A stretch of DNA of 63,554 nucleotides, the filler included, from Stramenopiles sp. TOSAG23-6 (Eukaryota): the NCBI GenBank assembly GCA_900128565.1. It is 39 parts of 39 records of this genome, joined end to end, with 100 filler letters (N's around TTAATTAATTAA, not from the genome) between each part and the next. Parts side by side here need not be neighbours in the genome. Positions count along the whole stretch, not along the records: positions 49,078 to 50,601 come from LT638926.1; positions 50,702 to 52,224 come from LT638927.1; 37 more parts are not named here. One strand, given 5' to 3'. Both the position numbers and the translations under genes were made by a program. A model generated the notes under the pieces. The model saw only the letters and a list, made by a program, of their open reading frames with translations. It was not told the origin of the DNA and ran no database searches. This document shows positions 19,555 through 63,076 of this stretch, piece after piece; the first letter of the stretch is position 1; each line of letters starts with the position of its first letter.

Positions 19555-19711
19555 ATGGATTATGAAAAAATATTTCAAAAAAAAAAAAAATGTTAGGTAC
19601 AAAATTTCGTANNNNNNNNNNNNNNNNNNNNNNNNNNNNNNNNNNNNNNNNNNNNTTAATTAATTAANNNNNNNNNNNNNNNNNNNNNNNNNNNNNNNNN
19701 NNNNNNNNNNN

Positions 19712-21247: not shown

Positions 21248-21354
21248 NNNNNNNNNNNNNNNNNNNNNNNNNNNNNNNNNNNNNNNNNNNNTTAATTAAT
21301 TAANNNNNNNNNNNNNNNNNNNNNNNNNNNNNNNNNNNNNNNNNNNNTATACTT

Positions 21355-22836: not shown

Positions 22837-22983
22837 TAAAAATAATAAAAATAATAAAAATAATAAAAATAATAAAAATAATANNNNNNNNNNNNNNNNN
22901 NNNNNNNNNNNNNNNNNNNNNNNNNNNTTAATTAATTAANNNNNNNNNNNNNNNNNNNNNNNNNNNNNNNNNNNNNNNNNNNN

Positions 22984-23502: not shown

Positions 23503-23804
23503 CGTGCGTTCTAACGAATCAATAAGTGTGTAAGGTTTTATTGATTTGACTCATTTGAGATTATATATTATGATCTCAGACTCAGATCCGAGCCAAGGTA
23601 ATTACCTTTGCTATTATTCATGACCGTAGTGACGTATGACGTCATCTATAAAAATAGCGGTACTAGTCAAGTCAAGTGGAGCTGTCAAAATCGGTGCAAT
23701 CGCAATCATATAAGATTCATTCTCCAAAAAAACAGTCTTATTCTTTGCAATTTCTTGATTATTCCTTAAATTACCACCACAATCACGTGTTCCTTTTATA
23801 GTCT

Positions 23805-24455
23805 ATGGTAGATACATGTGTGAATAATCCACCTATAGTTGATGGTGGTGATCAAAGTATAGGGGTGTCACCTTGTTCGGACTCTGTTTCAAAAAAATCT
23901 CAGCCATCTTCATCAGAAGAATCTAGAGTCCAGGTCATTGTTCGAGTTCGTCCTTTATTACCCCTGGAGCTTGCTCATAACGCACGACATTGTCTAAAGG
24001 TATCAGAAGGCCGTCACGAAATAGTAATAGAAGGTGCAAGAAGTGGTACATATACATATGATGGTGTAGTATCAGCTTCGCGCTCACAGCAGTACATGTA
24101 CGAAACAGTAGCTCAGCCATTAGTTGCTGACGTACTCAAGGGCTACAATGCAACTATAATGGCATATGGGCAAACTGGTTCAGGTAAAACCTATTCTGTT
24201 GGTAGTACTGCTGGCAGCGTTGGTGGAATTACAGTGAGTGCTGGTATTATTCCCCGTTTTATGCAAGAACTCTTTAACTCTCTTTCAAAGGAAACTACGA
24301 GTAATACAGTGGCTTCCGCTACTTTTATTGAAATATACAACGAAGAACTTCGAGATCTGCTTAAAGATCGTACGGTATCCCAACCTTCAGACGTTTGGGG
24401 TAATCATTCTTCATCTCAATCAAAATCTTTGCGAATTGTTGAAAACTCAAATCAT
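23805..24455 (+). CDS. Kinesin (kinesin-4-like) motor N-terminus
   Basis: VIVRVRPLL, GYNATIMAYGQTGSGKTY, GIIPR, FIEIYNEELRDLL. Ends at a family donor (24456). Confidence 0.92.
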
Positions 24456-24617
24456 GTAACTTTTTTCATTTCAATTTCAATTTTTTTTTTTTTTTTTGAA
24501 AATCCAATTTTTTCGTANNNNNNNNNNNNNNNNNNNNNNNNNNNNNNNNNNNNNNNNNNNNTTAATTAATTAANNNNNNNNNNNNNNNNNNNNNNNNNNN
24601 NNNNNNNNNNNNNNNNN

Positions 24618-26002
24618 TCTTTATTATCTTCCCCTTTAGTCACAGCTCTAGAGGGAGCCATTGGTGTTGCTGTTGTTCGGTCATTTCTTAGACATAAATG
24701 TTCATACGAAGCTCTACAATTTCTCCGATGTTCTCCTCCTCAATTGAATACGTCTGCTGAAAAAGAAATGAAAATTGTAGCCACGTTGAGCTGTGATTTA
24801 TGGCAAGAAGCATTAGTCGAACAACGGCGTATTCTTTCTGCGACATCTTCTGCTCTATTATCTAAACCAGGTCGAGCTTCAACTGATACAAATACGAAAA
24901 TGGAATGTAATAGACTTCGCGAGCGTTTATTATATTTGTTATTTACTTGGTTTTGGGACAAAAGGGACATGGATAAACTTACGCAGTATATGATTCTATG
25001 GAGAGCGAAAATATGTCTGAAATGGAAAACTGTCAGAGTAGACAACCTCAAGCATTAAGTCTTCTTATAGGATTTCTTTTACTACAAAATCGTATAGGGG
25101 AAGCGTTGTGGCTCCATGAAGACCATATTAGACGACATCCAGAAATTAGTTCAGCACCTGAAGTTTCTGCTCGTCATGCATTACTTGAAGGGTATTGCAG
25201 AACATTACCTGAAGCACATTGTAAATCTATGAAACCAGAAGCTCTATCGCGAAGATTTTGTAGTCACCGTCTTACAAGTGACGCAAAGCGTCAAGATGAA
25301 AATGATTCTAAAGTAAATGATGAAAATAGTAATGAAGATGTAAATAAGTATCATTGTTTCAAACAAACTCCAGTCCAGAATCGTCATACTGTTGGAAGTG
25401 ATACTAACAATTCTTCACATACTCTTTCTGGTAAAAGTCATCTCACAATCGCAAAATCTAGATTAATAAATACAGGTTATTCACCAGGACAAGTATCTCT
25501 CGGGCAATCTCCCCTTGTCCACCGTAGTACAGTTACGAACAAATCGTGTACTATACCTTCAACACCTGGTATACAATCTTGTGATGTACGCGAAGGTTTT
25601 CGTCTAGATTCCCATACAATGCCATCACAACAACTTCGACATTTTGCAACACCGTTTAGTAACACACAAACAACAAAAAGTGCTACACAAATGTCTCAAT
25701 TACGCATGACTCCTTCTTCTTCTCGACTTCCACTTGATACAAATAATAAAATCAACAACACTACATATGAACATCGAGAAGGATTGAACTGGAAAAAAAA
25801 GAATTTGACTCGACAACCACCTGCGGGAGTAGGATTATCTTTTGGTCATTTAGGTGGAAAAAATAATTTTGATGATACAGATATGAATTTTGGGGGGAGA
25901 TCTATTGGTCGTGATAGTTCACTCACTGTAGATACACCTCTTCATAATATGGAGAGAGAAAAAGGAAAAAATAATAGATCTGTTCGTTTTGTAGAAAGTT
26001 AA
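24618..26002 (+). CDS. Probable ELYS-domain nucleoporin, partial, frame change near 24990
   Basis: EALQFLR..L..DLWQEAL..QR and LLIGFLLLQNRIGEAL resemble the ELYS domain, followed by a disordered tail. Confidence 0.45.
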
Positions 26003-32860: not shown

Positions 32861-34260
32861 ATTATACGGTTTCTGAGGCAAGTAAAATACACCTGATGAA
32901 AGTCCATGACTATTATTGTTGTTAAATGCACCATCGCCAATATTTGTAATTGGTTTTGTAATCGAACCTCCAAGTGGAATTGGCCAGAGTGAACCTAAAC
33001 ATCTAAATATTGAAGATTTTCCTGAACCATTACATCCTGTCAAAAGCATGTTTGTGCCATGCTCAATAGAAAAGGTAAGATCTTTTACAAGTAATACTCC
33101 AGTTGGTGTAAAAACTTGAACATTATCAAATGCAATACGGTTTTGATTACTTTTTATTAGGTTAGGGTTAGGGTTAGGGTTAGGGTTGTGTGTCTGAATA
33201 TTTTTTCCATTGGATTCATTTTGGAACAATAATTTTGAATTTGATGACATTTGAGGATTAGGGTTAGGGTTCGCATTTTCATGAGCTGCTCGACACTTCA
33301 AATTTTGTAATGTATCAAATAAATCAGTGAGTCGTTGAGCTGGGCCTTTCATTGCATGTATTGTGAAAATATATATTTTTTTTTGATTAAGAAAAACAAT
33401 TTATTGGGTACAAAATTTTCATATTTTCATAGTAAAAAAAAATAAAATTCATATTATACACAAAAAATATTTTTTTTTTTTTTTTTTTTTTGGTTGTTGG
33501 TTAGGTATGAAATTTCGTATGAAAAAAAAAATTAAATATATTTTATACACGTACATGAAGTTGACGCAAAACTTTGACAATAATTCCCTGAGCTGACATG
33601 GCTCTAATAAAGTATTCTGTAATAAAACGAACTCGTGAGAAAAGTTCTCCAGTGTCTGACACAGTGTTGCCATTTCTATGTAATACCTCCAAATATTGGC
33701 GTTTTGCAACTGTCGATGTTGGTGAAATAAACCGACCGATAATATATTGTGAAAAATATTTTTGTTTTGTAAAATTTGTTAGGTATGGAATTTTTATAAA
33801 AAAAAAAATAAATTCGAAATTGAAAAAAATAAAAGATACATCACAGCTTGAGCAAAACTATAGCTACCGTATTCAAATAAAGCAGAGGTAATACATTGAT
33901 ACATGTATTATGAAAAAAATATTTCAAAAAACTTCGTTAGGTACAAAATTTCGTATGAAAAAAAATAAAAAATAAAAAAAAATAAAACATACCTTGTTAT
34001 TTTTTCTACAAAGTCATTACAATATTTTAGAAATATTTGCCATAAATTATCTAGAATATATTTTGGAAAAATATTTCAAAAAAAAAAATTTTGAAAATTT
34101 GTTAGGTACAAAATTTCGTACGAAAAAAAAATTCATACAAAAAAAAATTTAAAAAAAAAAAAAAAAAAACATACATGCATAATCCAATTATTATGACAAT
34201 GTGAGACTGACCGTAGAATATGAAGCATATATGTTTTTGTATCACTTGGTGAAAGTGGTG
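32861..34260 (-). CDS. ABCD (peroxisomal-type) ABC transporter, internal exons
   Basis: IAFDNVQVFTPTG..LLTGCNGSGKSSIFRCLGSLWP..FYLPQKPY. Six family introns or intron ends in 1.5 kb. Confidence 0.88.
33356..33554 (-). mobile_element. Family intron, GT...AT
   Basis: ctt cat|GTACGTG...CACAATACAT|gca atg gives VLRQLH-AMKGPAQRL. Confidence 0.8.
33742..33839 (-). mobile_element. Family intron, GT...AT
   Basis: gtg at|GTATCTTTT...CACAATATAT|t atc. Confidence 0.8.
33903..33992 (-). mobile_element. Family intron, GT...AT
   Basis: aca ag|GTATGTTTT...CATAATACAT|g tat. Confidence 0.8.
34056..34174 (-). mobile_element. Family intron, GT...AT
   Basis: tgc at|GTATGTTTT...CCAAAATATAT|t cta. Confidence 0.75.
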
Positions 34261-40837: not shown

Positions 40838-41131
40838 ANNNNNNNNNNNNNNNNNNNNNNNNNNNNNNNNNNNNNNNNNNNNTTAATTAATTAANNNNNN
40901 NNNNNNNNNNNNNNNNNNNNNNNNNNNNNNNNNNNNNNTCACGTATAATAATATATGTATGTTTGATTTTTTTTCAATTAGGGTTAGGGTTAGCGTCGCG
41001 ATGGCACAAATTAAAAAATTACTTCTTCGAGTCAAAGTTTGATTGATTTGATTTGAATCATTTGAATTTTGAAATTTTGATTGAATATATGAATTAGGAA
41101 TGGAGAGGACTCTTTGTAAAGTACTGTAGCA

Positions 41132-45912: not shown

Positions 45913-47250
45913 ATAATAATACAACAACAAATCGAGTGTGTATTTCCTCTGAAGAGAATGAAGATAATACAACAGGTTTGTCAAACATCTCCAAACTATC
46001 CAATGAAACAAATAATAAAAATAATAAAAATAATAAAAATAATAAAAAAAACACGAAAAAACGACAACGTGACGAAGAAATGTCTGATTTTGAAATTGTT
46101 GACAAAAAACAAAAAAATCAAAAAAATCAAAAAAATCAAAAAAATCAAAAAAAAGTACATTATAGCATCCCTCAATACCCAAATAAAATTACTGCTGTAG
46201 GTTGGGAAGATGTAACAATGAGTATTGGTTCCGTATGGGCAGAAATTTTATCATTACAAAAACAATTGTATGTTTTTATCATTTTTCAATTTGGAATTTA
46301 TGTCAAAATTTTTTTTTTTTTTTTTTTCAAAAATTTTTTTTTTTTTTTTTTTTAAAATTTTTTTTTTTTTTTTTTTCTTTCAAAAAAAATTTTTTTTTTT
46401 TTTTTTCGTACAAAAAAATTTTTTTTTTTTTTTCGTACAAAAAAAATTTTTTTTTTTTTTACACTTTTTTTCAAAATTTTTTTTGAAACATAAAAATTTA
46501 CAAAATTGTACAACAAATATGAAATATTGTGCAATACTATAGATATACACCAATGGAGTTACCACTAAGTTCATGGAATTGGCAAAGATCTTTATCACAA
46601 GGACTATCTAAAAAAGTTGAAGTTTTTTTCAAATTAAAAATTCAAAAAAATTCAATACATCAAAAAAAAAATATTTTGAAATTATCAAAGAAAAACATCA
46701 ATATCAATGATGAATGTCATGATGCTGAAGAAGAAATACATGCTGCTGAAAGTGTTGTACATGGGATTAAAGATAGAAAACGTCATGTACATATTATTTT
46801 TTTCATACGAAATTTTGTACCTAACGATTTTTTTTTTCAAAAAAAAATTTTGTACGAAATTTTGTACCTAACAATTTTTTTTTCAAAAATTTTGAAATAT
46901 TTTTTTTACAATACAGTATCATTCAAAAAGATCTCAACGGAGAAAAACCATTGCTCAATCGAACCCTAACCCTAATAATTCGAATACTTCTATTCAATCT
47001 ATTCAGATTAACCCTAACCCTAGAGTATCTAATTTTGGTGTAGAGTGTTCGAGTAGTACAATGACGTCATCGAGTAGTTGTGATGATTTGAACCCTAACC
47101 CTACAACAAAACGGTATGCACGAAATCCACCTATATTTTCTATGAAATTTAAAATTCCTCCACTTTCGAATAACCCTAACCCTAGTAGTACACAGTCAAC
47201 TACATTGAAGAAATCAAAAAAATCAATTCAAATAGTTGGAGTCAAATCAT
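45913..47250 (+). CDS. Unknown low-complexity multi-exon protein
   Basis: Exons between family introns; NK/NQK and NPNP repeats. Confidence 0.45.
46787..46916 (+). mobile_element. Family intron ending in AG
   Basis: cgt cat|GTACATATT...ACAATACAG|tat cat; duplicated core. Confidence 0.75.
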
Positions 47251-47510: not shown

Positions 47511-47582
47511 AAGCCAAGGACGGGCTCGAACCGTCTTCAAAAGATTTGCAATCTCTTACATTACCAATTATGCTACTTGACC
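47511..47582 (-). tRNA. trnC: Mitochondrial tRNA-Cys(GCA)
   Basis: Cloverleaf, TTGCAAA anticodon loop, GGTTCGA T-loop. Confidence 0.9.
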
Positions 47583-47595
47583 TTTATTTGATTTT

Positions 47596-47669
47596 TCAGA
47601 GCGGTAGGATTTGAACCTACGACCTACTGCTCCCAAAGCAGTTGCTCTTCCAGGCTAAGCTACGCTCTG
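47596..47669 (-). tRNA. trnP: Mitochondrial tRNA-Pro(UGG)
   Basis: CAGAGCG acceptor stem, TTTGGGA loop. Confidence 0.9.
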
Positions 47670-47672
47670 TAT

Positions 47673-47756
47673 TGGGAAAAGTAGGATTCGAACCTACGTA
47701 GGGAATATCCCAGAAGATTTACAATCTACCGCCTTTAACCACTCAGCCATCTTCCC
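47673..47756 (-). tRNA. trnY: Mitochondrial tRNA-Tyr(GUA)
   Basis: TTGTAAA loop, long variable arm (bacterial type). Confidence 0.9.
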
Positions 47757-47759
47757 GAA

Positions 47760-47832
47760 AGTGTTTAGTAGGATTTGAACCTACATCTACGGGGCCGAAA
47801 CCCATGACTCTATCCAATTGAGCTATAAACAC
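47760..47832 (-). tRNA. trnR: Mitochondrial tRNA-Arg(UCG)
   Basis: GTGTTTA acceptor stem, TTTCGGC loop. Confidence 0.8.
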
Positions 47833-47837
47833 TTTTT

Positions 47838-47909
47838 TATCCCTTACGGGAATTGAACCCGTATTAATGCCTTGAAAAGGCATTGTCCTAACCGTTAGAC
47901 GAAAGGGAC
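47838..47909 (-). tRNA. trnE: Mitochondrial tRNA-Glu(UUC)
   Basis: GTCCCTT acceptor stem, TTTTCAA loop. Confidence 0.9.
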
Positions 47910-48977: not shown

Positions 48978-49162
48978 NNNNNNNNNNNNNNNNNNNNNNN
49001 NNNNNNNNNNNNNNNNNNNNNTTAATTAATTAANNNNNNNNNNNNNNNNNNNNNNNNNNNNNNNNNNNNNNNNNNNNATTGTTTTTTTTTTTTATAAAAA
49101 TGTTGTACCTAACAAAATTTTGAAAAAAAAAAAAAAAAAAAAAAAAAAAATTCACAATATAG

Positions 49163-49619
49163 GAGCCAGTTCAATTTTCTACTTTAAGTTCTAATTCACA
49201 CACACAACCTATTTATTCATTATCAATGTATGTTTTTTTTTTTCAATTTTGAATTTATGAATTTTTTTTTTAATACGAAATTTTGTACCTAACAGATTTT
49301 TTTTTTTGACATATTGACACGAAATAAATGGTAGGCACAGCTGCTGCCAATAATCTTGTGTCTGTTAGTACATCAGGTCAATTGTGCAAATGGGTAACAT
49401 CATCCTTAAATGCACCGATTTCGTGTAACTCATTAAAGTACAAAAAAAAAGTCGGTATTGAAAATGATGTTGCAGTGACGTCATTTTGTTTTCCATCTGG
49501 TGAAAATAGTCGATATTGTTGTGGTAGTGAAACAGGCGAGTTGTATACATCATCGTTGGATGAAGCAAAAATGGAATTAACTAAATATCCCACGTATTTT
49601 TTCATTTTCATAGAAAATG

Positions 49620-49650
<31 letters not shown>

Positions 49651-49895
49651 GAAATTGAATAAAAAAAAAAAAAAAAAAAAAAATTGACATATTTTTTTAA
49701 AAATAAATGGGTGATTTTTCTTCTACAGTTACATCAAAACTTACTGAACTGCCAATGTCTCAGCCAAGGGCAACTTCACCTGAAACCATTGACCAAAAAA
49801 GTGATAATTATTTAGGTCATTTTGGACCAGTGACGGCGTGTACGTTTTTTTCATAGAATTTTTTTTTTTTTTTTTTTTTGTAGGGGTTTTTTAAA

Positions 49896-49933
<38 letters not shown>

Positions 49934-50498
49934 CATAGAATTTTTTTTTTTTTTTTTTCATAGAAATTTTTGTACGTAACAAATATATCAACGTTTTTGA
50001 AATATTGTTCCACAATATATTGCAATATCATCCAAATGTGCAAGGTAAAAACACATCATCTGGTGTTTTTGATTTACTACTAACTACTTGTATGTTGGTC
50101 AATCAACAGAATCCTAACACTGGTTTTATCATTTTTTACAATCAATTTTTTTTTTTAATTTTTTTTTGGTAGATAATTTTGTACCTAAGATTTTTTTTTT
50201 TAAATTTTGAGTTATTTTCACACAAATGCAGCTGTAGATTGGACATGTAAACTTTGGAATCTCAGTCAGAATGATAGACCATTATATGTTTTATTTTTTT
50301 TAATTTTTTTTTGTTTGGTTTTCGTACGAAATTTCGTACCTAACAAATTTTAACAAAAAAAAATATTTTTCACAATATATATATTCTTTTCAAGCTCATG
50401 ACTATTTACTTGATGTGAAATGGTCACCCATGCATCCTTCATTATTTGCTACCGGTGATGCTAGTGGCAATGTCAATTTTTGGAATATAAATGTCGAT
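49163..50498 (+). CDS. Cytoplasmic dynein intermediate chain (WD40), internal exons
   Basis: Spliced HTQPIYSLSMVGTAAANNLVSVST..GHFGPVTALQYHP..LLTTSVDWTCKLW..PLYSF..DVKWSPMHPSLFA. Seven family introns or intron ends. Confidence 0.9.
49228..49329 (+). mobile_element. Family intron, GT...AT
   Basis: tca at|GTATGTTT...GAAATAAAT|g gta. Confidence 0.85.
49594..49708 (+). mobile_element. Family intron (core degraded), GT...AT
   Basis: ccc ac|GTATTTTT...AAAATAAAT|g ggt. Confidence 0.65.
49840..50020 (+). mobile_element. Family intron, GT...AT
   Basis: gcg t|GTACGTTT...CACAATATAT|tg caa. Confidence 0.85.
50090..50231 (+). mobile_element. Family intron ending in AG
   Basis: act t|GTATGTT...CACAAATGCAG|ct gta gat tgg. 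Confidence 0.85.
50284..50380 (+). mobile_element. Family intron with ATATGTTT 5' end (exact register ambiguous)
   Basis: cca tt|ATATGTTTT...CACAATATAT|a tat tct restores RPLYSF. A +4 shift gives an equivalent GT...AT intron. Confidence 0.75.
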
Positions 50499-50543
50499 GT
50501 ATGTTACATTTTCATTTTCGATTTTTTTTTTTTTTTTTTACCG

Positions 50544-50581
<38 letters not shown>

Positions 50582-50807
50582 TTTAATTTTTAAAATTTTT
50601 TNNNNNNNNNNNNNNNNNNNNNNNNNNNNNNNNNNNNNNNNNNNNTTAATTAATTAANNNNNNNNNNNNNNNNNNNNNNNNNNNNNNNNNNNNNNNNNNN
50701 NTTTTTTTTTTTTCCCAAAAAAAAAAAAATCCAATTTTTTTTTTTATAAAAATTTTTTTCCCAACAAATTTAAATTTTTTTTTTTCAAATATTTTACCAA
50801 AATACAG

Positions 50808-51735
50808 TAAGCTATACAACATCTAAAAAATGTTCAAAATTACTTATAGACGCCGGTGCTGATCTATCAAAGATTCATTTTCGTGCATCTTTAAAGAATC
50901 AAAACATGAATGTATCTTTTATTTTTTTTTTTTAAACAAAAAAATTCGAATTTATTTTTTTTTGAAAATTTTGTACCTAACAATTTTTTTAGATTTTTTT
51001 TGAAATATTTTTCCAAAATACGTGGACAAATTGGACAAAATAATTTTTTATATTCTTCATTTGATGAAACAATAACAGAAATGAATGGATTTGACTTATT
51101 ACGACTGTATTTAATAACACAAAGAAAATTAAAACATTTGAGAATAAAACGAAATAGTTTGAATGTATTAGAACAATCAAAAAAATATAGTACATCTCAA
51201 ACGATGCATTCAAAAATGAGGTATCAAAATAGATTTAGTACGTTTTATTTTTTATTTTTTTTTGAGTTTTTGAATTTTTTGAATTTTTTTTCATACGAAA
51301 TTTTGTACCTAACAAAAAACAAATTTAAAAAAAAAAAAATTCACAATATATGCAATACACCAGTCATCTATGATGTATTTGATGATAGGTGGACAAAAAA
51401 AGAAGTTCAAAAACGTATTCAACAATATACAAAGAACCAAAACAACACAAGAAATCCTAACTTTAATCAACAATATCCACATTTTTCACTTCGAGTAGGT
51501 AAAGGTATTACATCTGAATATCGTGATTATAATCATTCAAAGTCTTTCAAAAGACATTTAAATAGTAGTTCTAGAAGTAGTATCATGAAACGACACTTAT
51601 ATAGTTCTAGAAGTAATACAAAACATTTAAAACAATATTTGCGTTCATTTGCACATGATCAAAATCAAAATCAAAATGTACATCATATAGAAAACAAAAA
51701 AATAAAAGAAATAAAAGAAATAAAAGAAACCAAAA

Positions 51736-51774
<39 letters not shown>

Positions 51775-51783
51775 ATGGATTAT

Positions 51784-51815
<32 letters not shown>

Positions 51816-52116
51816 AACCATCGGCATACTCTTGCAAGATACCGAGTTAAAATACCAAACAGGTTTGCGCGATCGCATGTGGGTATAGATGTACAAAAGT
51901 CAAATCGAATAAAAATGTGGAGACGACAAAATTACAAAAAAACTTTAAAAAAAACTTTAAAAAAAACAAAAAAACAAAAAAATAATGGACAATTTGATAC
52001 AAATCAATTTTTTAGTAAAAAACACCTGGAAAAACTTATAAAAAAACCATTTATTATAGCATGTCAAAATGGTGATTTAGACACCATTGAAAAAATGATC
52101 AAAAATGATGCGACTT
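50808..52116 (+). CDS. Ankyrin-repeat protein with low-complexity insertions, internal exons
   Basis: KLLIDAGAD; FIIACQNGDLDTIEKMI. Family introns at 50912-51023 and 51238-51351. Confidence 0.65.
50912..51023 (+). mobile_element. Family intron ending in GT
   Basis: atg aat|GTATCTTTT...TCCAAAATACGT|gga caa; phase 0. Confidence 0.65.
51238..51351 (+). mobile_element. Family intron, GT...AT (in frame)
   Basis: ttt a|GTACGTTTT...CACAATATAT|gc aat. Confidence 0.7.
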
Positions 52117-52326
52117 GTACGTTTTTTATTTCAATTTTTTTTTTGAAATTAAATTTTGTTTTTTTTTCGTACGAAATTTTGTACCTAACATATTTTTTTT
52201 TTTTAATATTTTTTTTTTCTCCATNNNNNNNNNNNNNNNNNNNNNNNNNNNNNNNNNNNNNNNNNNNNTTAATTAATTAANNNNNNNNNNNNNNNNNNNN
52301 NNNNNNNNNNNNNNNNNNNNNNNNAT

Positions 52327-52425
52327 GTATGTTTTCAGGATCAATTTTAAATTCATTTTTTTTTCGTACGAAATTTTGTACCTAACAAAAACTTTTACTA
52401 AAAAAAATATTTTCCCAAAATACAT
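52327..52425 (+). mobile_element. Family intron, GT...AT
   Basis: at|GTATGTTTT...CCCAAAATACAT|g aaa. The upstream exon is lost at the contig edge. Confidence 0.75.
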
Positions 52426-53781
52426 GAAAGCTACGGATAAAATGAATCGTCTTATGAAAAATGCAGGAAAAAAAATCACCTCACATGTGGGAAAGAATAA
52501 AGATGTTCATTTTTCTTCTAAAACTAAAAGAATGTATGTTTTCATCAATTCTAACTAATTATAGATAATGACGTACCTCAATGTTTTTTTTAATCTACAT
52601 TTTTTTTATAGGAAATTTCGTACCTAACAAATTTGAAAAAAAAAATATACTTTTTTACAATGTGTGGTCGCAACATTTGAAAAAGATTCACATAATTTGA
52701 AACAAGTAACTAGAAGTGGTTTGTCTCTGTTGATGCAAAGTCTTCAGCACGTAGAAAACAAAGCGAGTCTTCGAATTGTTCATTCAACAATATATCAGAA
52801 ACATGTCGCTGTCAAGCATGTACATTTTNAAAATTGAATTTCAAATGTATATATATTTTTCATACTAAATTCCGTACCTAACGATTTTTTTTCGGTAAAA
52901 AAAAAATATATTTTTTCACAATACAGGGACATGTAGAAGAAGATCCCGATCCAACAAAATCAAGTGCAACTCAGCAAAATCTCGCTGCAGCTTCAATTAT
53001 TGTTAATGCTGTGATGGATTTCAATACGGAAGTACGTTTTCATTATGAATTTTAAATTTCTTTTTTTTTATTCAAAACAAAATATACTAAACAAATTTCA
53101 AATTTGATATAATTCCCCAAAATACATGTATTCTACTCTATGGACTGTGCTGCGGAAATTGTACTAGAAGATGGCAAAAATGTTGTAGTAGATACGACAG
53201 ATGATATCTATGGAAAAGAAGCTTCAGAACTTGTATCTGAAGTTGCTGAAGCACTCACTGATGATATATCTGTTGCTGGTACAATGTGTAAAATGGCAAG
53301 CATTGCCTCGTGTGGTACAACCACTGTAGTTGTAGGTATTGGCAAAAGCGCGATACATTTGAAAAATCGTTCAGAATGGGCGTCAGGCGATATCATTCAA
53401 CAAGGGTTTATGTACAGTTTACTTCCTCGAGAGTTATCAGATGTAATTAAAGTTGCTAAAAGTGTAAGCAAAAGCACAAAAGAAAAGGCAACCAATTTTT
53501 ATCATCAAGGTCTGGAAAGTTTTCAAAAAATAAAAAAACAAACCTGGTTTCGCAAGGGTAAAGCAGTAGCTGCTGCAAAAGATCATGAAACACCTAAAAC
53601 AACGAAAAACAATGCGACTGATAGTATCGTACATGAAATGGATGGTGTAACAAAAGAAGCTGATGTAGTTGTGAATGTTGCAACAAAAGTGATTCTAAAG
53701 TGGACCAAAGTCTGGTGTATTTTACGACAAGACACCTTTGCTGTATTTCAGGAAAAGCCAAAAAAAGATAACGCAGAAGAT
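52426..53781 (+). CDS. Multi-exon protein reaching the start of a PH domain
   Basis: KWTKVWCILRQDTFAVF. Continuous frame after removing introns 52534-52665, 52820-52926 and 53031-53127. Confidence 0.6.
52534..52665 (+). mobile_element. Family intron ending in GT
   Basis: aga at|GTATGTTTT...ACAATGTGT|g gtc. Confidence 0.6.
52820..52926 (+). mobile_element. Family intron ending in AG
   Basis: aag cat|GTACATTTT...CACAATACAG|gga cat. Confidence 0.8.
53031..53127 (+). mobile_element. Family intron, GT...AT
   Basis: acg gaa|GTACGTTTT...CCAAAATACAT|gta ttc. Confidence 0.8.
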
Positions 53782-53991
53782 GTATGTTTTATTTTTTTTC
53801 AATTTCGATTTTTTTTCGTACGAAATTTTGTACCTAACGATTTTTNNNNNNNNNNNNNNNNNNNNNNNNNNNNNNNNNNNNNNNNNNNNTTAATTAATTA
53901 ANNNNNNNNNNNNNNNNNNNNNNNNNNNNNNNNNNNNNNNNNNNNAAAATGAAAAAATACACAAAAATTTAGAGCCTTGTATTTGTTCAGG

Positions 53992-54159
53992 TGTTATTAG
54001 TTCCATTGAAGAACCTCAGAGATCCATATTAATGTTTGTTTTAGATATCCTCGTAGACGTTGAGAAATATAAAGACTGTAATTTGATGACTGCAAAAAAC
54101 ATAGCTGTTGTCATAGCTCCCAATCTTTTCCCTCCTCCCACGGAAACACAATTGAAAAA
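53992..54159 (+). CDS. RhoGAP domain C-terminal exon
   Basis: NLMTAKNIAVVIAPNLF. Confidence 0.75.
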
Positions 54160-54660
54160 NNNNNNNNNNNNNNNNNNNNNNNNNNNNNNNNNNNNNNNNN
54201 NNNNNNNNNNNNNNNNNNNNNNNNNNNNNNNNNNNNNNTATATTGTTCATTTTAGATAAAATAAAACAAGTGCCTTAATTATTTTTCTTAACGACACTAT
54301 ACATTTTTTCAGGTGCCAACTTCTGTTCCAGAAGAACCGCCGCTAACTGGCTCAAGTGCTGCGAGTATATATTTATTTTGAAGTTTTGGAAATATCTTTC
54401 CTGCTTGCAGAGTAATAATAATACTAAGTGATATTATTGAAATCAAAATGTTCATTGTTGTCGTTGTGTAATTGATAAATCAAATTTGAAATTGTGCTTC
54501 ATCTTTTTGCAATCTAAATCTGTTTTGTTGTTGTTGTTGTTGTTGTTAACAAGTATTACTCATTTAGTACTGCCACCGGATGTACAAACTATAGCTTATA
54601 CTCATCGAACCGAATCTGAATCTGGTCAGATTTGTATAAAACACGATTAATACAAAGTAA

Positions 54661-55413
54661 ATGGGAAAAAATAATATTGACAGGACTGGTGATGAGGAGC
54701 AAAGGAATATTCGAACTGATGATATGAGTGGGAAAACTTCTGCTAACGGCGTCGCAAATAAAAGGTTCCATACATTGACCCGAGCAATCAGAAAACTTAA
54801 AAAGCCAACAAAAAAGCACAAGTTTAATAAAGGAGTCAAGATGCACATGAGCAAACGTATTTGGATAGAAAAGCATCATAAGGTCCATGATGAACTAATT
54901 GACACTGCGACGTCTGGTGTTGGTAAAAATATCAATAAACATATTCAACTCATCGACGGGAACCGAAAACTTCAGGCTAAAGAACCAAAGTGCATTGTTG
55001 CTGCGAGGCACCGCCAAAAGGTTGTTGACTTTGAAAATGAAGGGATAATGCACTTGTTGTTACGAGTTAAGGAAAGGAAAAATAGGTACCATGGCAATAA
55101 AAATGATAACTGGCATGAACTAATACAACAGAAAAAAATATATAGACAAAAAGCAGTAAAGGCTGCAGTTGAAAGTTATAAACAAAAGATTGAAGAAGAG
55201 AATAAAGTGATACTCGGTCATTTATGCAAAATTAAGTCTTCTTTTTCTGCCGATCGATGGAAAAAAGATTATAAAAGACATCTACATATGCGAAAAGTAA
55301 TGGCTCAAGTTTCAAGACCAAAAAACAAAAAAAAAGCCACGCATAAGTATTCCTTCGTGGCAGGTTCACCCGCCAGTGAAAGAGGGATTCCTGAATACAA
55401 CGCTGATATGGAT
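54661..55413 (+). CDS. CFAP97/Hemingway-like domain protein, partial
   Basis: KIEEENKVILGHLCKIKSSFSADRWKKDYKRH pattern. Ends at family donor 55414. Confidence 0.5.
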
Positions 55414-55566
55414 GTATGTTTTATTTTTTTTCAAATTCGAATTGTTTTTTCATACGAAATTTTGTANNNNNNNNNNNNNNNNNNNNNNNNNNNNNNNNNN
55501 NNNNNNNNNNTTAATTAATTAANNNNNNNNNNNNNNNNNNNNNNNNNNNNNNNNNNNNNNNNNNNN

Positions 55567-55967
55567 CCTTCGTCCTCGGCGCCATATAACATTCCCATAT
55601 TTAGTGCTGCCCCTAAGTGGTGTAGATAGTGCAACCAGGAAACATTTTTGCCTTTTACTATCAAGAAAAGTGTATCGGCAAACTCGACGAACTTGCTCAT
55701 GAAGAACGCCCACACAATTCGCCGAAATGAAGGGTCACGAAATGCAACTGAGCAGTCCTGACTGAATAAAGGCACTCTTTGCACAGCCATTATCATTCCT
55801 ACACAGCACCACAGAGAAAAGAAAACCATCCCCAAGTTGTAAATGAGCATGAGTGGCTTCCAAAATGAAGCGGTGCTTGCTGAGTTCCCGTACGCCCGTT
55901 TCAGCACGGGAACGGCCACCGCGTAGACCGGAAGAGCCAAAAAGCTTGGTTGCCAAAGAACGTCCAT
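55567..55967 (-). CDS. GNS1/SUR4 (ELO) fatty-acid elongase N-terminal half
   Basis: YNLGMVFFS, FFMSKFVEFADTLFL, WLHYLHH. Confidence 0.92.
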
Positions 55968-57186
55968 TGAAATAAACCGTTGGTAAAAGTATAGCTGTTT
56001 GAGATGCTTATTTGAATAAAAGTGCAAGATGTTTTAATTTTCTTTGTTAGTAAACATTTTCAATCGTAGTTCTTATTCGTCAATGCAGTGCAGTATTCGG
56101 CAACTTGAGCAGGTATCACCAATTAGTTTCAACAGAAGATATGTGAAAAAAAATTGTTGTAGTAGTAGTAGCGATAAGTAATAAATGTTGGTGGGCGATG
56201 ATATTCCTATGTAATTTTAATTGAATCATCATCATTTTTCTTCGTCATTCACAACACTTCTTTTTATTATACACTACAGGTATATACCAGGGTACGGTAT
56301 AAATATTATACCTGGGTCCTCGGTATAATACCAAGGTGAAAATACAAAAAAATAATAATTGGACGACCTCGTATTCTTCGATTAGTCGTCTTTAAAAATA
56401 TATGTATAAATACATCAACACAGCAAAGGGATTAAATTTTTTGGTAAAAAAGTCCTCCAAGCTTTCCAAGTACGAGAGTCTCCTAAAGGTTGTTTCTATG
56501 CTATGACCTGTTATAAATGTTATATTAACCACAAGACTTTGATGGAATGACGCATTTTGCATTTCGCAAGTGCGTCATTTTATTGTCATTATTGCCTTTG
56601 TTTGTTGTAAAAAAATAGAGGGCATCTTCGTTTTCATTTACCCTACTATTACCTCTAATCGTACTACACATCAACAAATTTTTGCGCTGAAAAAATAATT
56701 ATCTAATAATAATAAAATTATTTTTCTATTATAAACTGTGCTACTAGTCTATGATGATGATATTTGATAGACTATGTAAATGAACAAAATACATTGAATA
56801 GCTATGAGAGAGATAGCAGCAAACCTAAAAATAATAGTTTTAAAACTTTACGCCTTAACTCGTCTTTAAAAATGATGGTCAGGTCGCGGAACCTGCTCTC
56901 GATACTAGTGAACATCTTTCCACACAAGATCAAAACCTGCGATCAGAACTAATCCTCTTGCTCCCAAAAATATTTTTCCAAATTGTCGGTTTAATCCACG
57001 TGTAATCACTTCTTTCTAGATACCCTTTAACAGTTTTATTCAAGGCAGAGAACGTGTTACTCTCCAACGCGGATAGACTCATTTGGNNNNNNNNNNNNNN
57101 NNNNNNNNNNNNNNNNNNNNNNNNNNNNNNTTAATTAATTAANNNNNNNNNNNNNNNNNNNNNNNNNNNNNNNNNNNNNNNNNNNN

Positions 57187-58559
57187 CAGAAGCAAGCAAA
57201 AATGCTGCTGAGACATATGCGCTTGAAATGGCAATCCATTTGAAGAGAGCAGAGCGTGAACGAAAAAAGAAAGAACTGGAAGCTGAGTTTTCTGGTGTCT
57301 TTGCAGAAGTCACTCAAAAACGAGAACAACTTGGTACATTGGAGCGAAATATTGCAGAAATGGAAATGAATAGGCAACGCAAAGATCGCGAATTCCAAAG
57401 GCTACAACGTAAATTGATGGAATTATTAGAAGAACAAAAGCTTGAGTTAGATAACTTACGAGCCAAAGGAGTAGAGCTTGAGGTTGCTACTGCCACATCT
57501 GCTGCTGCTGCTGCTGCAACGGCATCATCTGCAAAGAAACATGAAGAAAAGACAAAGGCAATTTTTTCGGGTACAGAAGAGTTATTGAAGTTTCAATTTA
57601 TGAGTATGAGTCTTGGATATTTTAATAGTTTGAACATGCTCAAATCATTAAAAGATATGAATGCAGATACAACTGCTAGTGCCATGAAGTCTTCAGCGGA
57701 CACTGCTGCCGCCGCCGCTGCTGCTGCTGCTGCTGCGAATATCCCATCCATGAAACATCTCGGTATTGGGGCAGACGAATTAGTCAGCGCAATGTCGCAA
57801 AAACGAATTATGAATGCTGCTGCAAAGAAAAAGGAAATAGAAGACGCAAAGAAAGCAATGCAAGAATCATTTCCTGATGATGTGCATATATGGAAAGTTC
57901 GTGACGTTGTCCGATGGTTGGATCTACAAATGCTTGGACAATACAAGAAAGCTTTCAAGGAAGCTGCTGTAGATGGTGATTTCTTGATGGAATTAACACC
58001 GGAAGATATGCGAGATATATTGGGTATTGAGCATAGATTACATGTGAAGAAAATAATAACGATGAGAGAAAGATTAAAGCCTTTGACTGCTGCTGAAATT
58101 AGACAAAGGAACGAACTACAGCGAGAAGAACACGCATCACAGTTGAGATCAATGGGTGCTGGTGCTTCAGCAATGCATCGCATATCTGAGACGAAGTCGA
58201 GCAGTGGTGAACCACCACCAACATTAACAACTCTATTTATGCACGTTCGAAATGGTCGTAAAAATAAAGTAGAAACCGGAATTGGTCGAGGATTTGATGT
58301 CAATACTGAAGATGGTCATGGAAATACATTGTTGATTACAGCTGCTCAGCAAGTAAACATTCCAATGTGTGAAATGCTCATTGATCGAGGTGCCAAAATT
58401 AATCATCAAAATTTGCAAGGGAATACTGCACTTCATTATGCCATGGCATATGATCCTACAGGGGATGTTGGGGAATTTCTTATTGCAAAAGGTGCTGATG
58501 ACACAACTGAAAACCAGTGGGGATTATCACCATATGATGGAATTTCAGATGATATGTAA
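57187..58559 (+). CDS. Coiled-coil + SAM + ankyrin-repeat protein, 5' partial
   Basis: SAM WKVRDVVRWL..F..AAVDGDFL; ANK GNTLL, GNTALHYA. Confidence 0.85.
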
Positions 58560-58805
58560 AAAAAACGAATGTGAGGGATTTTATTGTTTAAATAAAAACT
58601 TTTTTAGAGTAATAATTATTTTTTGTATTAAATTTTGTACCTTAAAATTGATAGCTCAGCAAGCAGGCTTCCAAACGGGTCCCCCACGATCGTACTAGCT
58701 GCTCTNNNNNNNNNNNNNNNNNNNNNNNNNNNNNNNNNNNNNNNNNNNNTTAATTAATTAANNNNNNNNNNNNNNNNNNNNNNNNNNNNNNNNNNNNNNN
58801 NNNNN

Positions 58806-59648
58806 GAGGCAGAAGGTTGTATAAGATATCGGCGAGTGTTTAATGCAATTCAACGTCAGGTGGAAGAAGAAGTCAAAACAAATTCAGGTTTAGATAGCGT
58901 TCCTCTCTCTGAAGCGATAGCATCATCAGCAGTAAAAACAGCAATGTATGTTTTTCATCATAAAAAAAGTTTCAATTTTTTTTCATACGAAATTTCGTAC
59001 CTAAACAAAAAAAATATTTTTTTTTTTTTCACAATACATGGACATTGGCGCTAAAGCTATCGTAGTGCTTACACAAAGTGGAGCCACTGCCCGTTTAGTT
59101 GCTAAATATCGTCCAAGTCAACCAATATTATGTCTAACACCATCCACAGACACTGCACGAAATACAAATGGATTACTCCGGGGTGTGACATCGCGTGTTA
59201 TGTACGTTTTTTTTGTACCAAATTTTGTACCTAACGAATTTTTTTTTTTTTTTTTTTTCATTCATTTCAAATTTTTTTTTCATTGAAAATTTTGTACCTC
59301 ATAATTTTTTTTTCTAAAAAAAAAATATGTTTTCACAATACATGAAATCAATGGAAGGTTCAGATGGCATTCTTAGACAAGCAGGTCTGTTAGCCAAAGA
59401 ATTAGGGTGGGTGAATTCAGGGGATCTTTACGTAGCTATTCACGTATGTTTTTTTTTTGGTACGAAATTGTATACCTAACAATTTCTTTTAAATCATTTG
59501 TTTCATCATTTATGTCCTTTTTTTTTTTTTTTAAATTTTTGTTACTTAACAAAACATTGAATGTCTGAAATATTTTTTCATAGTACATGGACAAATTGAA
59601 GGTCTTAGTGGTGAAACTAATTTGATGAAAGTACTAACAGTGTCTTAG
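58806..59648 (+). CDS. Pyruvate kinase C-terminal domain, four exons
   Basis: EAIASSAVKTAMDIGAKAIVVLTQSGATARLVAKYRP..LRGV..GDLYVAIHGQIEGLSGETNLMKV*. Confidence 0.95.
58946..59039 (+). mobile_element. Family intron, GT...AT
   Basis: gca at|GTATGTTT...CACAATACAT|g gac. Confidence 0.9.
59202..59343 (+). mobile_element. Family intron with duplicated core, GT...AT
   Basis: gtt at|GTACGTTT...CACAATACAT|g aaa. Confidence 0.9.
59444..59588 (+). mobile_element. Family intron, GT...AT
   Basis: att cac|GTATGTTT...CATAGTACAT|gga caa. Confidence 0.88.
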
Positions 59649-59651
59649 TTT

Positions 59652-59890
59652 TATGTTTTTTTTTTTAAATAAAAGTAGAAATATAAGACATTTCTTATTG
59701 TATGTTTTTTTTTAAAAAAAAAAGTAGAAATATAAGACATTTCTTATTGTATGGTTTTTAAAATAAAAGTAGAAATATAAGACATTTCTTATTGTATGGT
59801 TTTTTTAAATAAAAGTAGAAATATAAGATATTTCTTATTGTATGGTTTAAAAAAAAAAAATAGAAATATAAGACATTTATTATTGTATGG
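59652..59890. repeat. Five tandem units of about 47 nt downstream of the PK stop
   Basis: TATG(G/T)TTTT..AAA(T)AAAAGTAGAAATATAAGACATTTCTTATTG x5. Confidence 0.85.
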
Positions 59891-60484
59891 TACAATATAT
59901 AAGATATCATATGCTAAAAGTTATAATTCTTGTTCAAATTGATTAATGACGTCATTACTACGGTTTATAAATTGTTGAGCCATTGTCACATGAAAATTCA
60001 ATGCGATTCGTTCGGCGCGTCGTACGTAAGCCAAAACTTTCTTATTCATTGATGCTGAAACGTCACTACATGTTTTTCTATCATTTTCTTCAGAAAATTT
60101 ACCATTATACGCAGGACTTTTAATTTTTTTTTGAATAATTTGTAGAAATTGAGTATATGCTAGAGTTTCATTTTCCTTGGAAACAAATCCTAAGAATGAA
60201 TTGTCTTTATCCCACGAATTCTCTACTTTTGAAAAATCATTTTCAGTAAGATTTGATAAACGAAGGCATGTATTTTGGAAAAATATTTCAAAAAAAAAAA
60301 CTTAAATTTGTTAGGTACAAAATNNNNNNNNNNNNNNNNNNNNNNNNNNNNNNNNNNNNNNNNNNNNTTAATTAATTAANNNNNNNNNNNNNNNNNNNNN
60401 NNNNNNNNNNNNNNNNNNNNNNNGCATAGTACAATACGCGCACTTACACGATATATATACTCTCAAGTAAAGCCTATTAAAGAT

Positions 60485-61066
60485 GTGAATCGAAATAAAT
60501 GTAAAAATGTACAGTTAAAACATATGCGTGTCCCAAGGACACTTGGAGCAAAGACGCATGAAAAGATTGCCATTACCGGAATGGCTTGCCGATTCCCAGG
60601 GAATTCAAATACACCTGATTCTTTTTGGAATATGTTATGTAGTGGATATGATGCGATGTCTGCGAATCCTCCAGCATGGCGTCGTGACCTTGGTGGTGGA
60701 GGTGGGTTTTTGTCGGAAGAAACTATAACTACGTTTGACCCGAAAGCCTTTGGTTTGTCTCCAAATGAAGCTCAGGAGATGGATCCACAACAACGGCTTC
60801 TGTTACAAACAGCGAGAGAAGCACTCGAAGATTCTGGAATGCTACAAAATGATGGTTCTGTTATTGATAATGAAATGGTTGGAGTATACTTAGGTATGAT
60901 GAATTTTGATTATTCGGCGAAAGCTATCGATTCGGAATCACCGTATTCAGTTACTGGTGTTTCAATGAGTATTGCTGCGAATCGTATTTCGTATATATTT
61001 AATTTACGTGGACCATGTTTTGCAGTCGATACCGCTTGTTCATCAAGTCTTGTTGCGATGCACCGG
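60485..61066 (+). CDS. Type I polyketide synthase, ketosynthase N-half
   Basis: IAITGMACRFPG, MDPQQRLLL, ANRISY, DTACSSSLVA. Confidence 0.95.
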
Positions 61067-61939
61067 TAACAGTTGAAACAAACTTTATATTATTATGAAN
61101 CTTGGTATGTCCTTGAAGAATGNTTGAGGCTGCAGAACGAATATCAGGNATTGCCGATTCAACACATTCACTNTGAAATCCACTNGTNACACCAAGTCGN
61201 TTTGCCTTTATTGATTTCGAGTGTAATAAAACAAGNGTNTTATTTATTGNTTCNACTGAACCACTAANTACAACACTTTTAGGACCATTGACAACTGCTA
61301 CAACGACATCTNTGATATTTGCTGAAGCTAAAANTATTTCAANATTTTCCTCAGATTCCCATACAGCTGCCATTGTTCCAGTTTCTGTGCTATNTGANTG
61401 TGCAAGTTTCGACATTGCTTTACCACGAGCCGCAACAAGGGCACATGCCTCAGATAATGTTAACATACCTGCTATACACATAGCGGCAAACTCACCTAGA
61501 CTATGTCCCACTACCGCAATTGGTTCAACACCGAGTTGCTTCTGAATGACTTGACAAAGTGCATACTCCACAGCAAATAATGCTGGTTGTGCGAATGTAG
61601 GATCACTTAAATTTAATGATATGTTTGTATTGCTGGATTCATCGGTATCAAGTTGTTTATATAACTTCGAAACTAGAGAGACTTCCATATACTCAACGAA
61701 GAACTTGTCGCATTCTTCCATTGCATCACGAAAAATAGTGTTGTTCTGGTACATTTGAAAAGCCATATTTGAGTATTGTGCGCCTTGGCCAGTGAATACA
61801 AATGCAACTCTACATGGATTTTGCAATATTTTACCGACTACTACATTACTTTTTGTTTCACTATTTTCTAAACTTTCAAGACTCTTTTGTAGATTATCTA
61901 TTGANTCTGTTACNATAGCAGNACGNTNTGCATGTCGTT
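61058..61939 (-). CDS. Type I polyketide synthase, acyltransferase domain
   Basis: FVFTGQGAQ, AQPALF, GHSLGE, VNGP. Confidence 0.95.
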
Positions 61940-62041
61940 NNNNNNNNNNNNNNNNNNNNNNNNNNNNNNNNNNNNNNNNNNNNTTAATTAATTAANNNNN
62001 NNNNNNNNNNNNNNNNNNNNNNNNNNNNNNNNNNNNNNNCG

Positions 62042-63076
62042 ATGAATCAAGTAGTTATGACAGATACTGGAACGAATGAAAGCCAAATTATTGCGTTGGG
62101 AGTGCCCGGGGTGAGTTCGAGATTGAGGCATGGTCGATGGAAGCCCTTCGAACACAAAAGATTCGTTGATGGTATAAAGATACATGGTAAAGAATGGAAG
62201 AAAATTGCAGATGTTGTTAACACAAGAACAGTTGTACAGATTCGAACGCATGCCCAAAAATACTTTCTAAAATTGGAAAGAGATGCCTTGAGACGCGCTA
62301 ATGGCGGAGTGCTTCCAAAGAATCTTCCTGCTAGTAAAGTAAGTACGAAAAAAAATAAAAAGTCAAAGCCTTCCCCCAAAAAGAAGATTGTGATGAAAAA
62401 AAGAAGAGAAAGTGCTAAGAAACGAAAATCAGGCACTAATGATATGTCTACTGCTGTCAGTCGCGGTGGATACATGTATTCTGATTATAATCCAAGTATG
62501 CTTTCACTCATGGCACCTAACACGAAAACAACGTTTAATCCAAGAGATGGGAGTCCTACAGCAGTGTCTGATATTAGCCTTCCCTACCAAATGGATATAT
62601 CCTCGGGTTCAAAACGACACAAAACTGACACTTTACAACTCAGTGATAGAGTGAATGACTCTGCTACCGAACTCTCTGAACTTTTCAGTTGTCCAATTAC
62701 GAATAATTCGGGTATGGAGAGTATAGTTACAGGAGAAACAAATGATGGAATGCTCACAAATTGGCTCAATGTATGTTTTATTTTTTGTTCAATTTTGAAT
62801 TTATTTTTTATAGTCAATTTTATACCTAACAAATTTTAGTTTTTTTTTTTGAAATATTTTTCCAAAATACACGATGTTGGAACATCAGCTCCACTTGGGT
62901 TACGATCCGACACAGAAGGATCTTCAGATAATAACTCTGACACTGTATCTAATTTTCAATCTAATGGAAACTCCATATCAGCTGATTGTGGCAAATGGGA
63001 AGAATCTTGGTCACAGCCATTTGATTTTGGTGCTTCGTTTGACAAACTGCCCATGTTAGAAATAGAAAATTCGTAA
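62042..63076 (+). CDS. MYB-related (SHAQKYF class) transcription factor
   Basis: GRW...EHKRF...TRTVVQIRTHAQKYF. Two exons joined by family intron 62771-62872. Confidence 0.9.
62771..62872 (+). mobile_element. Family intron ending in AC
   Basis: ctc aat|GTATGTTTT...TCCAAAATACAC|gat gtt. Contains an in-frame TAG. Confidence 0.8.

Follow-up and report, generated by a model that had tools for sequence, protein, structure and literature searches.

Which bases end the introns of this locus? The contig at positions 49078–50601 (LT638926.1) of Stramenopiles sp. TOSAG23-6 (GenBank assembly GCA_900128565.1) carries part of what appears to be a dynein intermediate chain gene, interrupted by copies of a repeated intron. 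Several of these copies seem to run from GT to AT, and the same borders can also be read two bases further left, as AT...AC. The finding that raised the question is confined to this one contig. The window analysed here is the whole stretch of 63,554 nucleotides in which it lies; it consists of about 45 scaffolds of about 1.5 kb each, some of them split by short runs of N, with joints made of N runs and a TTAATTAATTAA spacer. The GC content of its pieces ranges from 22 to 41%.

We propose that these are U2-type spliceosomal introns from one short, mobile introner family resembling miniature inverted-repeat transposable elements (MITEs), and that the AT at their 3′ end is the second copy of a repeated AT. 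We give this reading a probability of roughly 0.7. Observed directly were the family with its conserved parts and 3′-end statistics, the restoration of reading frames, the agreement with homologues and one RNA contig without intron B; from these we infer the register, and with it precisely which phosphodiester bonds are cut, as well as the U2-type machinery, an origin from a transposon and the way in which the 3′ site is chosen.

Few features of eukaryotic genes are as constant as the GT-AG rule, and only a handful of cases are known in which it is broken by a majority of introns (Fritillaria, Amoebophrya, euglenids and diplonemids), each an illustration of how much deviation the spliceosome can tolerate. 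To our knowledge, a GT...AT splicing habit has so far been known mainly from a few tunicates and parasites.

A repeated intron family in unrelated genes

The GTACCTAAC box was matched 67 times in the window against 6.2 matches expected, a number that none of 100 shuffles reached. For the palindrome GTACGAAATTTYGTAC adjoining the box there were 48 matches and 0 expected, with many sites counted twice, on both strands, because the motif is palindromic. About 40 copies of the family are present in 63 kb, spread over many contigs and unrelated genes. When 24 complete introns from unrelated genes were aligned with MAFFT, they aligned over their full length as one family, with the consensus GTATGTTTTATTTTTTTT-CAAATTCGA...-TTTTTTTTCGTACGAAATTTTGTACCTAAC-(A/T-rich run)-GAAATATTTTTCCAAAATACAT. 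A conserved UACCUAAC box together with T-runs forms a candidate branch site. The core motif CGTACGAAATTTTGTACCTAAC had 0 matches in JGI metagenome contigs and 0 in GTDB genome contigs.

Tails were located by a profile of the last 24 bases plus a curated set, and 40 clear family tails were kept. Those left out were weak matches (high E-value or short profile coverage), one tail in the mitochondrial contig and one in a long open reading frame (ORF) at 36323. At one aligned position, the 40 family 3′ ends read AT in 33 cases, AG in five, AC in one (62872) and GT in one (51023). Position −2 is A in 39 of the 40 tails, position −3 is C in 32 and position −4 is A in 36; the first exon base after the tail is G in 24. 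The AG of introns 46787–46916 and 50090–50231 shares its columns in the 24-intron alignment with the AT of the other copies, which confirms the claim of the first-pass annotation that AG sits exactly where the others have AT.

The two remaining 3′ ends belong to intron 50912–51023, which ends ACGT, and intron 62771–62872, which ends ACAC, in place of ACAT. Both introns are in frame and end at the same aligned position, and tolerance for the last intron base may be wider than T or G.

Frame tests were run from GTAYGT to the end of the consensus tail, and 18 candidate introns joined the longest ORFs on both sides in frame. Introns 34174–34056 and 33839–33742 are in frame with the second ORF (46 versus 47 and 65 versus 96 codons, respectively). 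Intron 53032–53127 is likewise in frame, as are the pyruvate-kinase introns 59202–59343 and 59444–59588, which were read by eye. The test was impossible at 52327, where N lies upstream, and rows that paired the box-internal GTAC or a wrong tail as splice sites were removed by eye. With the cut at GT and two bases earlier at the tail (…ATAC), all of these introns would be out of frame.

Two tandem modules, each a hairpin plus a box, are found in introns 17575–17760, 45481–45312 (minus strand), 46787–46916, 59202–59343 and 305–132 (minus strand). This suggests nested or duplicated insertions of the element.

The dynein gene and its introns

Judged by sequence matches, the assignment of contig 49078–50601 to part of a cytoplasmic dynein 1 intermediate chain gene holds. 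Exons 2 and 6 match human cytoplasmic dynein 1 intermediate chain 2 (DYNC1I2) in the PDB, at residues 364–438 (E 4e-10) and residues 492–531 (E 4e-11 to 4e-10). When single exons were compared with Pfam, WD40 alone was found, on exon 6, with 20.9 bits and under the cut-off. With exon 2 as the query, HMMER retrieved 105 relatives from a collection of 1.84 billion representatives.

Seven intron copies in this gene had been announced by the first-pass annotation, and seven intron stretches (A–G) are indeed present, with only the 3′ part of A and only the 5′ part of G on the contig, and with C as a degenerate copy. The six visible 3′ ends read exactly as listed there: the last nine bases of introns A–F are ACAATATAG, GAAATAAAT, AAAATAAAT, ACAATATAT, CAAATGCAG and ACAATATAT. 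The GTACCTAAC box, with at most one mismatch, occurs in five of the seven introns and is absent from C and from the visible part of G.

All parts of the gene lie on the plus strand. Intron A (49078–49162) begins off the contig, has the box GTACCTAAC at 49105–49113 and ends …CACAATATAG. It is followed by exon 1 (49163–49227, 65 nt), whose 3′ end is …TCAAT, and by intron B (49228–49329, 102 nt), which reads GTATGT...GAAATAAAT, has its box at 49285–49293 and is in frame. Exon 2 (49330–49593, 264 nt) precedes intron C (49594–49708, 115 nt), which reads GTATTT...AAAATAAAT and is asymmetric, the upstream exon ending AC; its removal is required for an open frame. Exon 3 (49709–49839, 131 nt), supported like exons 4 and 5 by the joined ORF and the homologue alignment, leads to intron D (49840–50020, 181 nt), which reads GTACGT...CACAATATAT, is in frame and has the box GTACGTAAC at 49972–49980. 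After exon 4 (50021–50089, 69 nt) comes intron E (50090–50231, 142 nt), a canonical GTATGT...CAAATGCAG intron in frame, with the box GTACCTAAG at 50181–50189. Exon 5 (50232–50283, 52 nt) is followed by intron F (50284–50380, 97 nt), which by family alignment reads ATATGT...CACAATATAT (AT..AT) and has its box at 50336–50344; four more registers of F, up to 50288–50384 (GT..AT), give an identical mRNA. Exon 6 (50381–50498, 118 nt) encodes a WD40 blade and ends …GTCGAT. Intron G (50499–50601) starts with GTATGT directly after this exon AT, and the contig stops inside it.

Joined by script at the GT...AT/AG borders, the six exons gave 699 nt without a stop, or 233 residues in the standard code. 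Of the 33 homologues with a length of 560 residues or more, 32 aligned with this product as a single high-scoring segment pair over about residues 2–233; P0150 gave the best match (E 3e-56). The top 16 of the 32 by E-value were aligned with it by MAFFT, and no gap was seen at junctions B (…SLSM|VGT…), D (…GPVTA|LQYHP…), E (…LLTT|SVDW…) and F (…RPL|YSF…). The split codon at junction F encodes L (P-L-Y-S-F), and 13 of the 16 homologues have L in the same column. Junction C is uninformative by homology because it lies inside a lineage-specific insert, which is partly common to the closest homologue only.

The next downstream AG was tried as an alternative 3′ site; conserved residues were then lost at D and F, or the frame was broken. 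Searches with exon 2, as the longer query, found no transcript-derived protein spanning the junctions and 0 related loci among metagenome contigs. For the exon between the asymmetric introns at 10837 and 11045, no homologous transcript-derived protein was found.

RNA evidence for intron B

RNA from the marine metatranscriptome runs X1, X2, X4 and X7 was mapped on the dynein contig only, with intron A masked as a repeat and hence without RNA information. One X1 contig of 219 nt (depth 7.6, 2 mismatches) corresponds to 49162–49224 plus 49327–49465 and skips 102 nt, with 4 letters shared between the two sides. Intron B could accordingly be cut as 49225–49326 (AA..TA) or be shifted by +1 (AT..AA), +2 (TG..AA), +3, which is 49228–49329 (GT..AT), or +4 (TA..TG). 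None of these five registers ends in AG or AC, and therefore a 3′ end other than AG is needed. A standard 5′ end is found in GT..AT only. Runs X2 and X4 match the repeat core only and X7 matches nothing on the contig, so they were not counted either way.

Over the intron core (49262–49307), the summed contig depth was about 13,000–25,000 in two seawater RNA libraries, compared with 5–8 over the exons. Most of the mapped contigs are only 90–95% alike, and other copies or relatives probably account for the bulk of the depth. Poly-A marine RNA thus appears to contain the family or its relatives in great abundance, be it as introns that are retained, as excised introns that are stable, or as DNA. 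The RNA runs that have words in common with 49078–58705 are all seawater or marine metatranscriptomes, with small shares of 0.05–0.13, which points to a eukaryote of the marine plankton as the source.

Register of the splice borders

The register was examined on 39 aligned family 5′ ends, with 25 copies curated for their borders. GT starts 38 of the 39 (GTATGT in 22, GTACGT in 11, variants in the rest); the exception is intron F with ATATGT. AT stands directly upstream of the 5′ site in 25 of the 39 copies, against a window-wide rate of 0.117 for AT in front of any GT (P = 1.5e-14). By class, the upstream AT is present in 17 of 22 copies with GTATGT, in 4 of 11 with GTACGT and in 4 of 6 with GTATCT, GTACAT, GTATTT or ATATGT. 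The upstream AT is thus strongly enriched yet dispensable, whereas GT is not, and GT-AT is therefore favoured over AT-AC shifted by 2 nt.

The enrichment of AT is also what the shifted reading would predict. Under it, both borders would lie two bases further left, the introns would be AT...AC (AT...AA for B) of U12 or U2 type, and GT-AT would be an artefact of the repeated AT. A first A and a last C are a known compatible pair of intron ends, and the A at −4 and C at −3 of most tails mean that most young copies would yield the same mRNA. We nevertheless regard the shifted borders as unlikely. In the 14 copies that keep GT without an upstream AT, the shifted 5′ end would be AC, CA, CT, GT, TT, TA, AG or AA. 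Asymmetric introns of this kind are 49594–49708, 5569–5660 and 59444–59588 (upstream exon ending AC), 10837–10925 (CA), 11045–11150 (CT), 51238–51351 (TA), 53032–53127 (AA) and 33992–33903 (AG). Introns C and D, preceded by AC and GT, offer no AT as a first dinucleotide; with an upstream exon ending in GT, the AT-AC reading is impossible for D. Three of the non-AT cases are AC (5569, 49594 and 59444), one transition away from AT, and by eye the change is synonymous at 5569 and 59444, as expected if the AT is exonic and drifts under coding constraint. The AG-ending copies, moreover, are ordinary GT-AG introns in the unshifted register, with the frame kept.

The motifs point the same way. The 5′ consensus GTATGTTTT with GTATGT is U2-like, and ATGTATGT is unlike the U12 motif [AG]TATCCTT, which was not matched; GTATCT occurs in just 2 of the 25 curated copies (50912 and 33839). 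A U12 branch site typically lies 10–20 nt from the 3′ end. In the family, the U12 branch motif TTCCTTRAC was not found near the 3′ end, and the GTACCTAAC box sits 30–43 nt away from it, as counted from the coordinates.

The first-pass annotation had preferred GT-AT to U12-like AT-AC. Its preference is supported by the 38 of 39 copies with GT against 25 of 39 with an upstream AT, though the bonds cut we still infer. Its argument that the shifted reading fails by giving AA ends is not decisive, as AT-AA is a known non-canonical U12 class in Physarum, where of 1,014 non-canonical U12-type introns AT-AA makes up 27% and GT-AT 17% (10.1101/2020.10.12.336362). Both dinucleotide pairs are therefore on record for U12 introns, which speaks for the shifted borders.

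Several further observations weigh against the proposed GT-AT borders and their splicing. All six last tail positions are conserved, so that −2/−1 is only mildly favoured over −4/−3. Frame tests are blind to a joint shift of both borders by 2 nt, and the ORFs stay open through the TAT 15 nt upstream of the tail, a 3′ end that is countered only by homology for D and F and by RNA for B. Junction residues did not settle the register, being identical at 5569, 49840 and 59444 and unconserved elsewhere. The UACCUAAC box has one C more than UACUAAC, the classical branch box. RNA support consists of one short contig for one intron (B), with a register ambiguous by 4 nt and a joint equally compatible with GT..AT and AT..AA, and this contig could come from a strain or from DNA without the insertion. 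Two other RNA contigs are unspliced: 49697–49850 includes the last 12 nt of C and the first 11 nt of D, and 50173–50286 extends across the 3′ part of E, the canonical intron. It follows from these contigs over the edges of C, D and E that the X1 library holds unspliced RNA or DNA of the dynein gene.

Such DNA would also fit a different reading, in which the elements are not spliced from RNA at all, and insertion polymorphism or excision of a MITE-like element or internal eliminated sequence (IES) at the DNA level, bounded by the repeated AT, would explain the contig without intron B. TA-bounded eliminated sequences exist, and the 2-nt direct repeat with short inverted termini is formally like them; RNA libraries may hold DNA. 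The 24 complete copies and 53032–53127, however, are all in sense orientation to the flanking frames, with 5′ site, branch box and pyrimidine run so oriented. Seven insertions in 1.5 kb would otherwise wreck an essential gene, and the ORFs are in the standard code, with no in-frame stop in the 233 dynein codons. We hold this reading without splicing to be very improbable.

Proposed origin of the AT end

Under the spliceosomal reading, an introner family would have spread through the genes of an AT-rich marine eukaryote. Each element would bring a 5′ splice site (GTATGT or GTACGT), a small hairpin (GTACGAAA/TTTYGTAC) leading into the branch-point-like box UACCUAAC, and a pyrimidine run with the tail AAAATAC. 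The terminal AT of the intron would be the second copy of a 2-nt AT direct repeat resembling a target-site duplication (TSD), the first copy of which ends the upstream exon. With this layout, a GT...AT cut would exactly restore the original coding sequence. The spliceosome would accept A at −2 with U or G at −1, so that the cut falls at one aligned position whether a copy ends in AT or in AG.

The co-option of a 3′ site from a TSD has precedents in Micromonas introners (AG) and in Fritillaria (exonic TAC) (PMC11282704). We further suggest, tentatively and at somewhat less than an even chance, that the major spliceosome of this marine protist has shifted, independently of Fritillaria, to accept U as the last base (G1/U-1), with GT-AT as the commonest intron type and the AT repeat of a single introner as the driver.

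In most copies the direct repeat is just 2 nt, and the inverted repeat is short (6–7 nt); the window showed no autonomous element, no empty site and no copy between genes. All this counts against a mobile origin. A TSD longer than 2 nt (CAT, ATG, CATG or ATGT) was considered; the third base of the repeat matches in only about half of the symmetric copies. Two copies (13818 and 4264) have ATACAT on both sides.

ATAC followed by the tail AT forms the reverse complement of the exon AT followed by GTAT, and in predicted folds of young copies (C)AUGUAU pairs with AUACAU(G), which would bring the junctions together. The 3′ border might then be set by pairing of the intron ends through this inverted repeat, as in euglenids or Amoebophrya, possibly with non-standard machinery. 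In intron B, the used 3′ end (AAT) follows earlier CAT and TAT triplets that are skipped, so that a 'first YAT' rule fails; a layout of inverted and direct repeats is known from Amoebophrya (PMC7789003) and from euglenids (PMC11282704). The fold z-scores are mixed, at −2.9, −0.95 and −1.2, with +2.07 for dynein intron B and −3.5 for F, so that two of the five predicted folds (−2.9 and −3.5) favour pairing. The diverged introns B and C barely pair, and yet B is the intron that the spliced RNA contig lacks. No compensating changes were seen by eye in the hairpin arms or between the 5′ GTACGT and the tail, so the GTACGT copies lack the tail change that pairing would call for. A perfect U1/U6-type GTATGT, a branch-like box and a conserved pyrimidine run would also be superfluous. 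For these reasons we think it quite unlikely that end pairing sets the 3′ border, and we retain the spliceosomal introner reading.

Comparison with known intron systems

The nearest parallels are Fritillaria and Amoebophrya. In Fritillaria, AT is the commonest 3′ end, with 44% in F. pellucida and 34% in F. borealis (Soo et al. 2026, PMC13326754). YAY forms the last three intron bases there and often also precedes the 5′ site (PMC13326754); in the window, similarly, YAY ends 32 of 40 tails and stands before the 5′ site in 15 of 37 copies. An origin from MITEs and TSDs has been proposed for the Fritillaria introns as well, and these are removed by a U2-type spliceosome (PMC13326754, PMC11282704). 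Fritillaria has duplicated U2AF1 and U2AF2. The 5′ ends there are mostly AG (classes AG/AC and AG/AT), with GT/AG making up only 5% (PMC13326754), in contrast to the strong GTAYGT of the window. The window is also dominated, unlike Fritillaria, by one near-identical family with a hairpin and UACCUAAC box, and its genes look protist- or fungus-like rather than tunicate (an SHAQKYF-type Myb, a very conserved nad4, TGA=W).

Amoebophrya has more than 60% non-canonical introns, among them repeated introns with inverted repeats of 8–20 nt and direct repeats of 3–5 nt over the junctions, so that borders are ambiguous (PMC7789003). It shares with the organism studied here that it is a marine protist with repeated non-canonical introns. 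It is reported to have no preferred terminal dinucleotides, apparently no U1 found, a GC content of about 50% or more and no mitochondrial genome (PMC7789003). The introns of the window, by contrast, have uniform ends (GT / AT or AG) and a U1-like 5′ site, and lie in sequence of 22–41% GC.

In Micromonas, Aureococcus and many aquatic eukaryotes, introners number from hundreds into the thousands, as short and nearly identical introns of otherwise unrelated genes, with terminal inverted repeats (TIRs) and TSDs (PMC11282704, PMC12130899). The element supplies one splice site, the TSD is co-opted for the other, and introners are enriched in aquatic organisms (PMC11282704, PMC12130899). Those described there have canonical ends, whereas the co-opted repeat here is AT and the 3′ end hence non-canonical; only the 2-nt repeat and the 6–7-nt inverted terminus are visible. 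In the 2025 introner survey, 3′ sites were taken as AG or AC and unverified non-canonical families were discarded (PMC12130899). The family resembles the non-canonical U12 introns of Physarum in its extended, highly conserved motifs, but differs in that the motif [AG]TATC[CT]TT and a branch site near the 3′ end are absent and in that GT-AT is the majority and not a rare exception.

No GTATGT...AT introner family was found described in the literature, within the open-access searches made, and the motif strings returned only primers or unrelated sequences among the matches listed.

The analysis supports non-canonical introns that derive from an introner, keep strictly to GT at the 5′ end and have A-T/G at the 3′ end. 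Since 5′ site, branch box and the A at −2 are strict and the last base alone varies (T in 33 and G in 5 of 40), the family isolates one variable of 3′ site recognition, and it links a change of the 3′ site with something as simple as a 2-nt repeat that a mobile element leaves behind. If the suggested shift of the major spliceosome is true, this would be a second natural system in which a transposon invasion rewrote the 3′ splice-site rule, in this case with an unchanged 5′ rule. In an organism of this kind, gene finders and introner surveys restricted to AG or AC ends would overlook or wrongly annotate almost all genes.

Other features of the window

An Rfam scan of the window gave no small nuclear RNA, and so no U2 gene, and only five mitochondrial tRNAs. 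These tRNA genes lie at 47511–47909 on a mitochondrial contig (47454–48977), which also carries nad4 on the minus strand and the start of cox1 on the plus strand. Four TGA codons in the cox1 start are read as W under table 4. The closest relatives of nad4 in a large protein collection are 89% and 86% identical.

On the 14-3-3 gene contig (8226–8760), an intron of about 375 nt does not belong to the family and has another build, GTAAGT...TACTAAC...ATATATAG. Unless the assembly contains a further organism to which this contig belongs, the family thus exists alongside ordinary GT-AG introns.

Long ORFs of several contigs contain telomere-like (CCCTAA)2 repeats (4108–4119, 22134–22365, 33162–33269, 40978–40995 and 46964–47185), with 14 matches against 0.07 expected, which translate as Asn-Pro runs. 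Interstitial telomere repeats within coding sequence are one possible explanation, some other type of insertion another. Judged by eye from ORF translations, the gene content of the regions 60380–61991, 61988–62839 and 11460–12440 includes ketosynthase (KS) and acyltransferase (AT) domains of a polyketide/fatty-acid synthase, an SHAQKYF-type Myb protein and a tyrosinase-like protein. Directly past the stop codon of the pyruvate-kinase fragment, at 59660–59891, a 45-nt unit is repeated five times in tandem with 88% matches.

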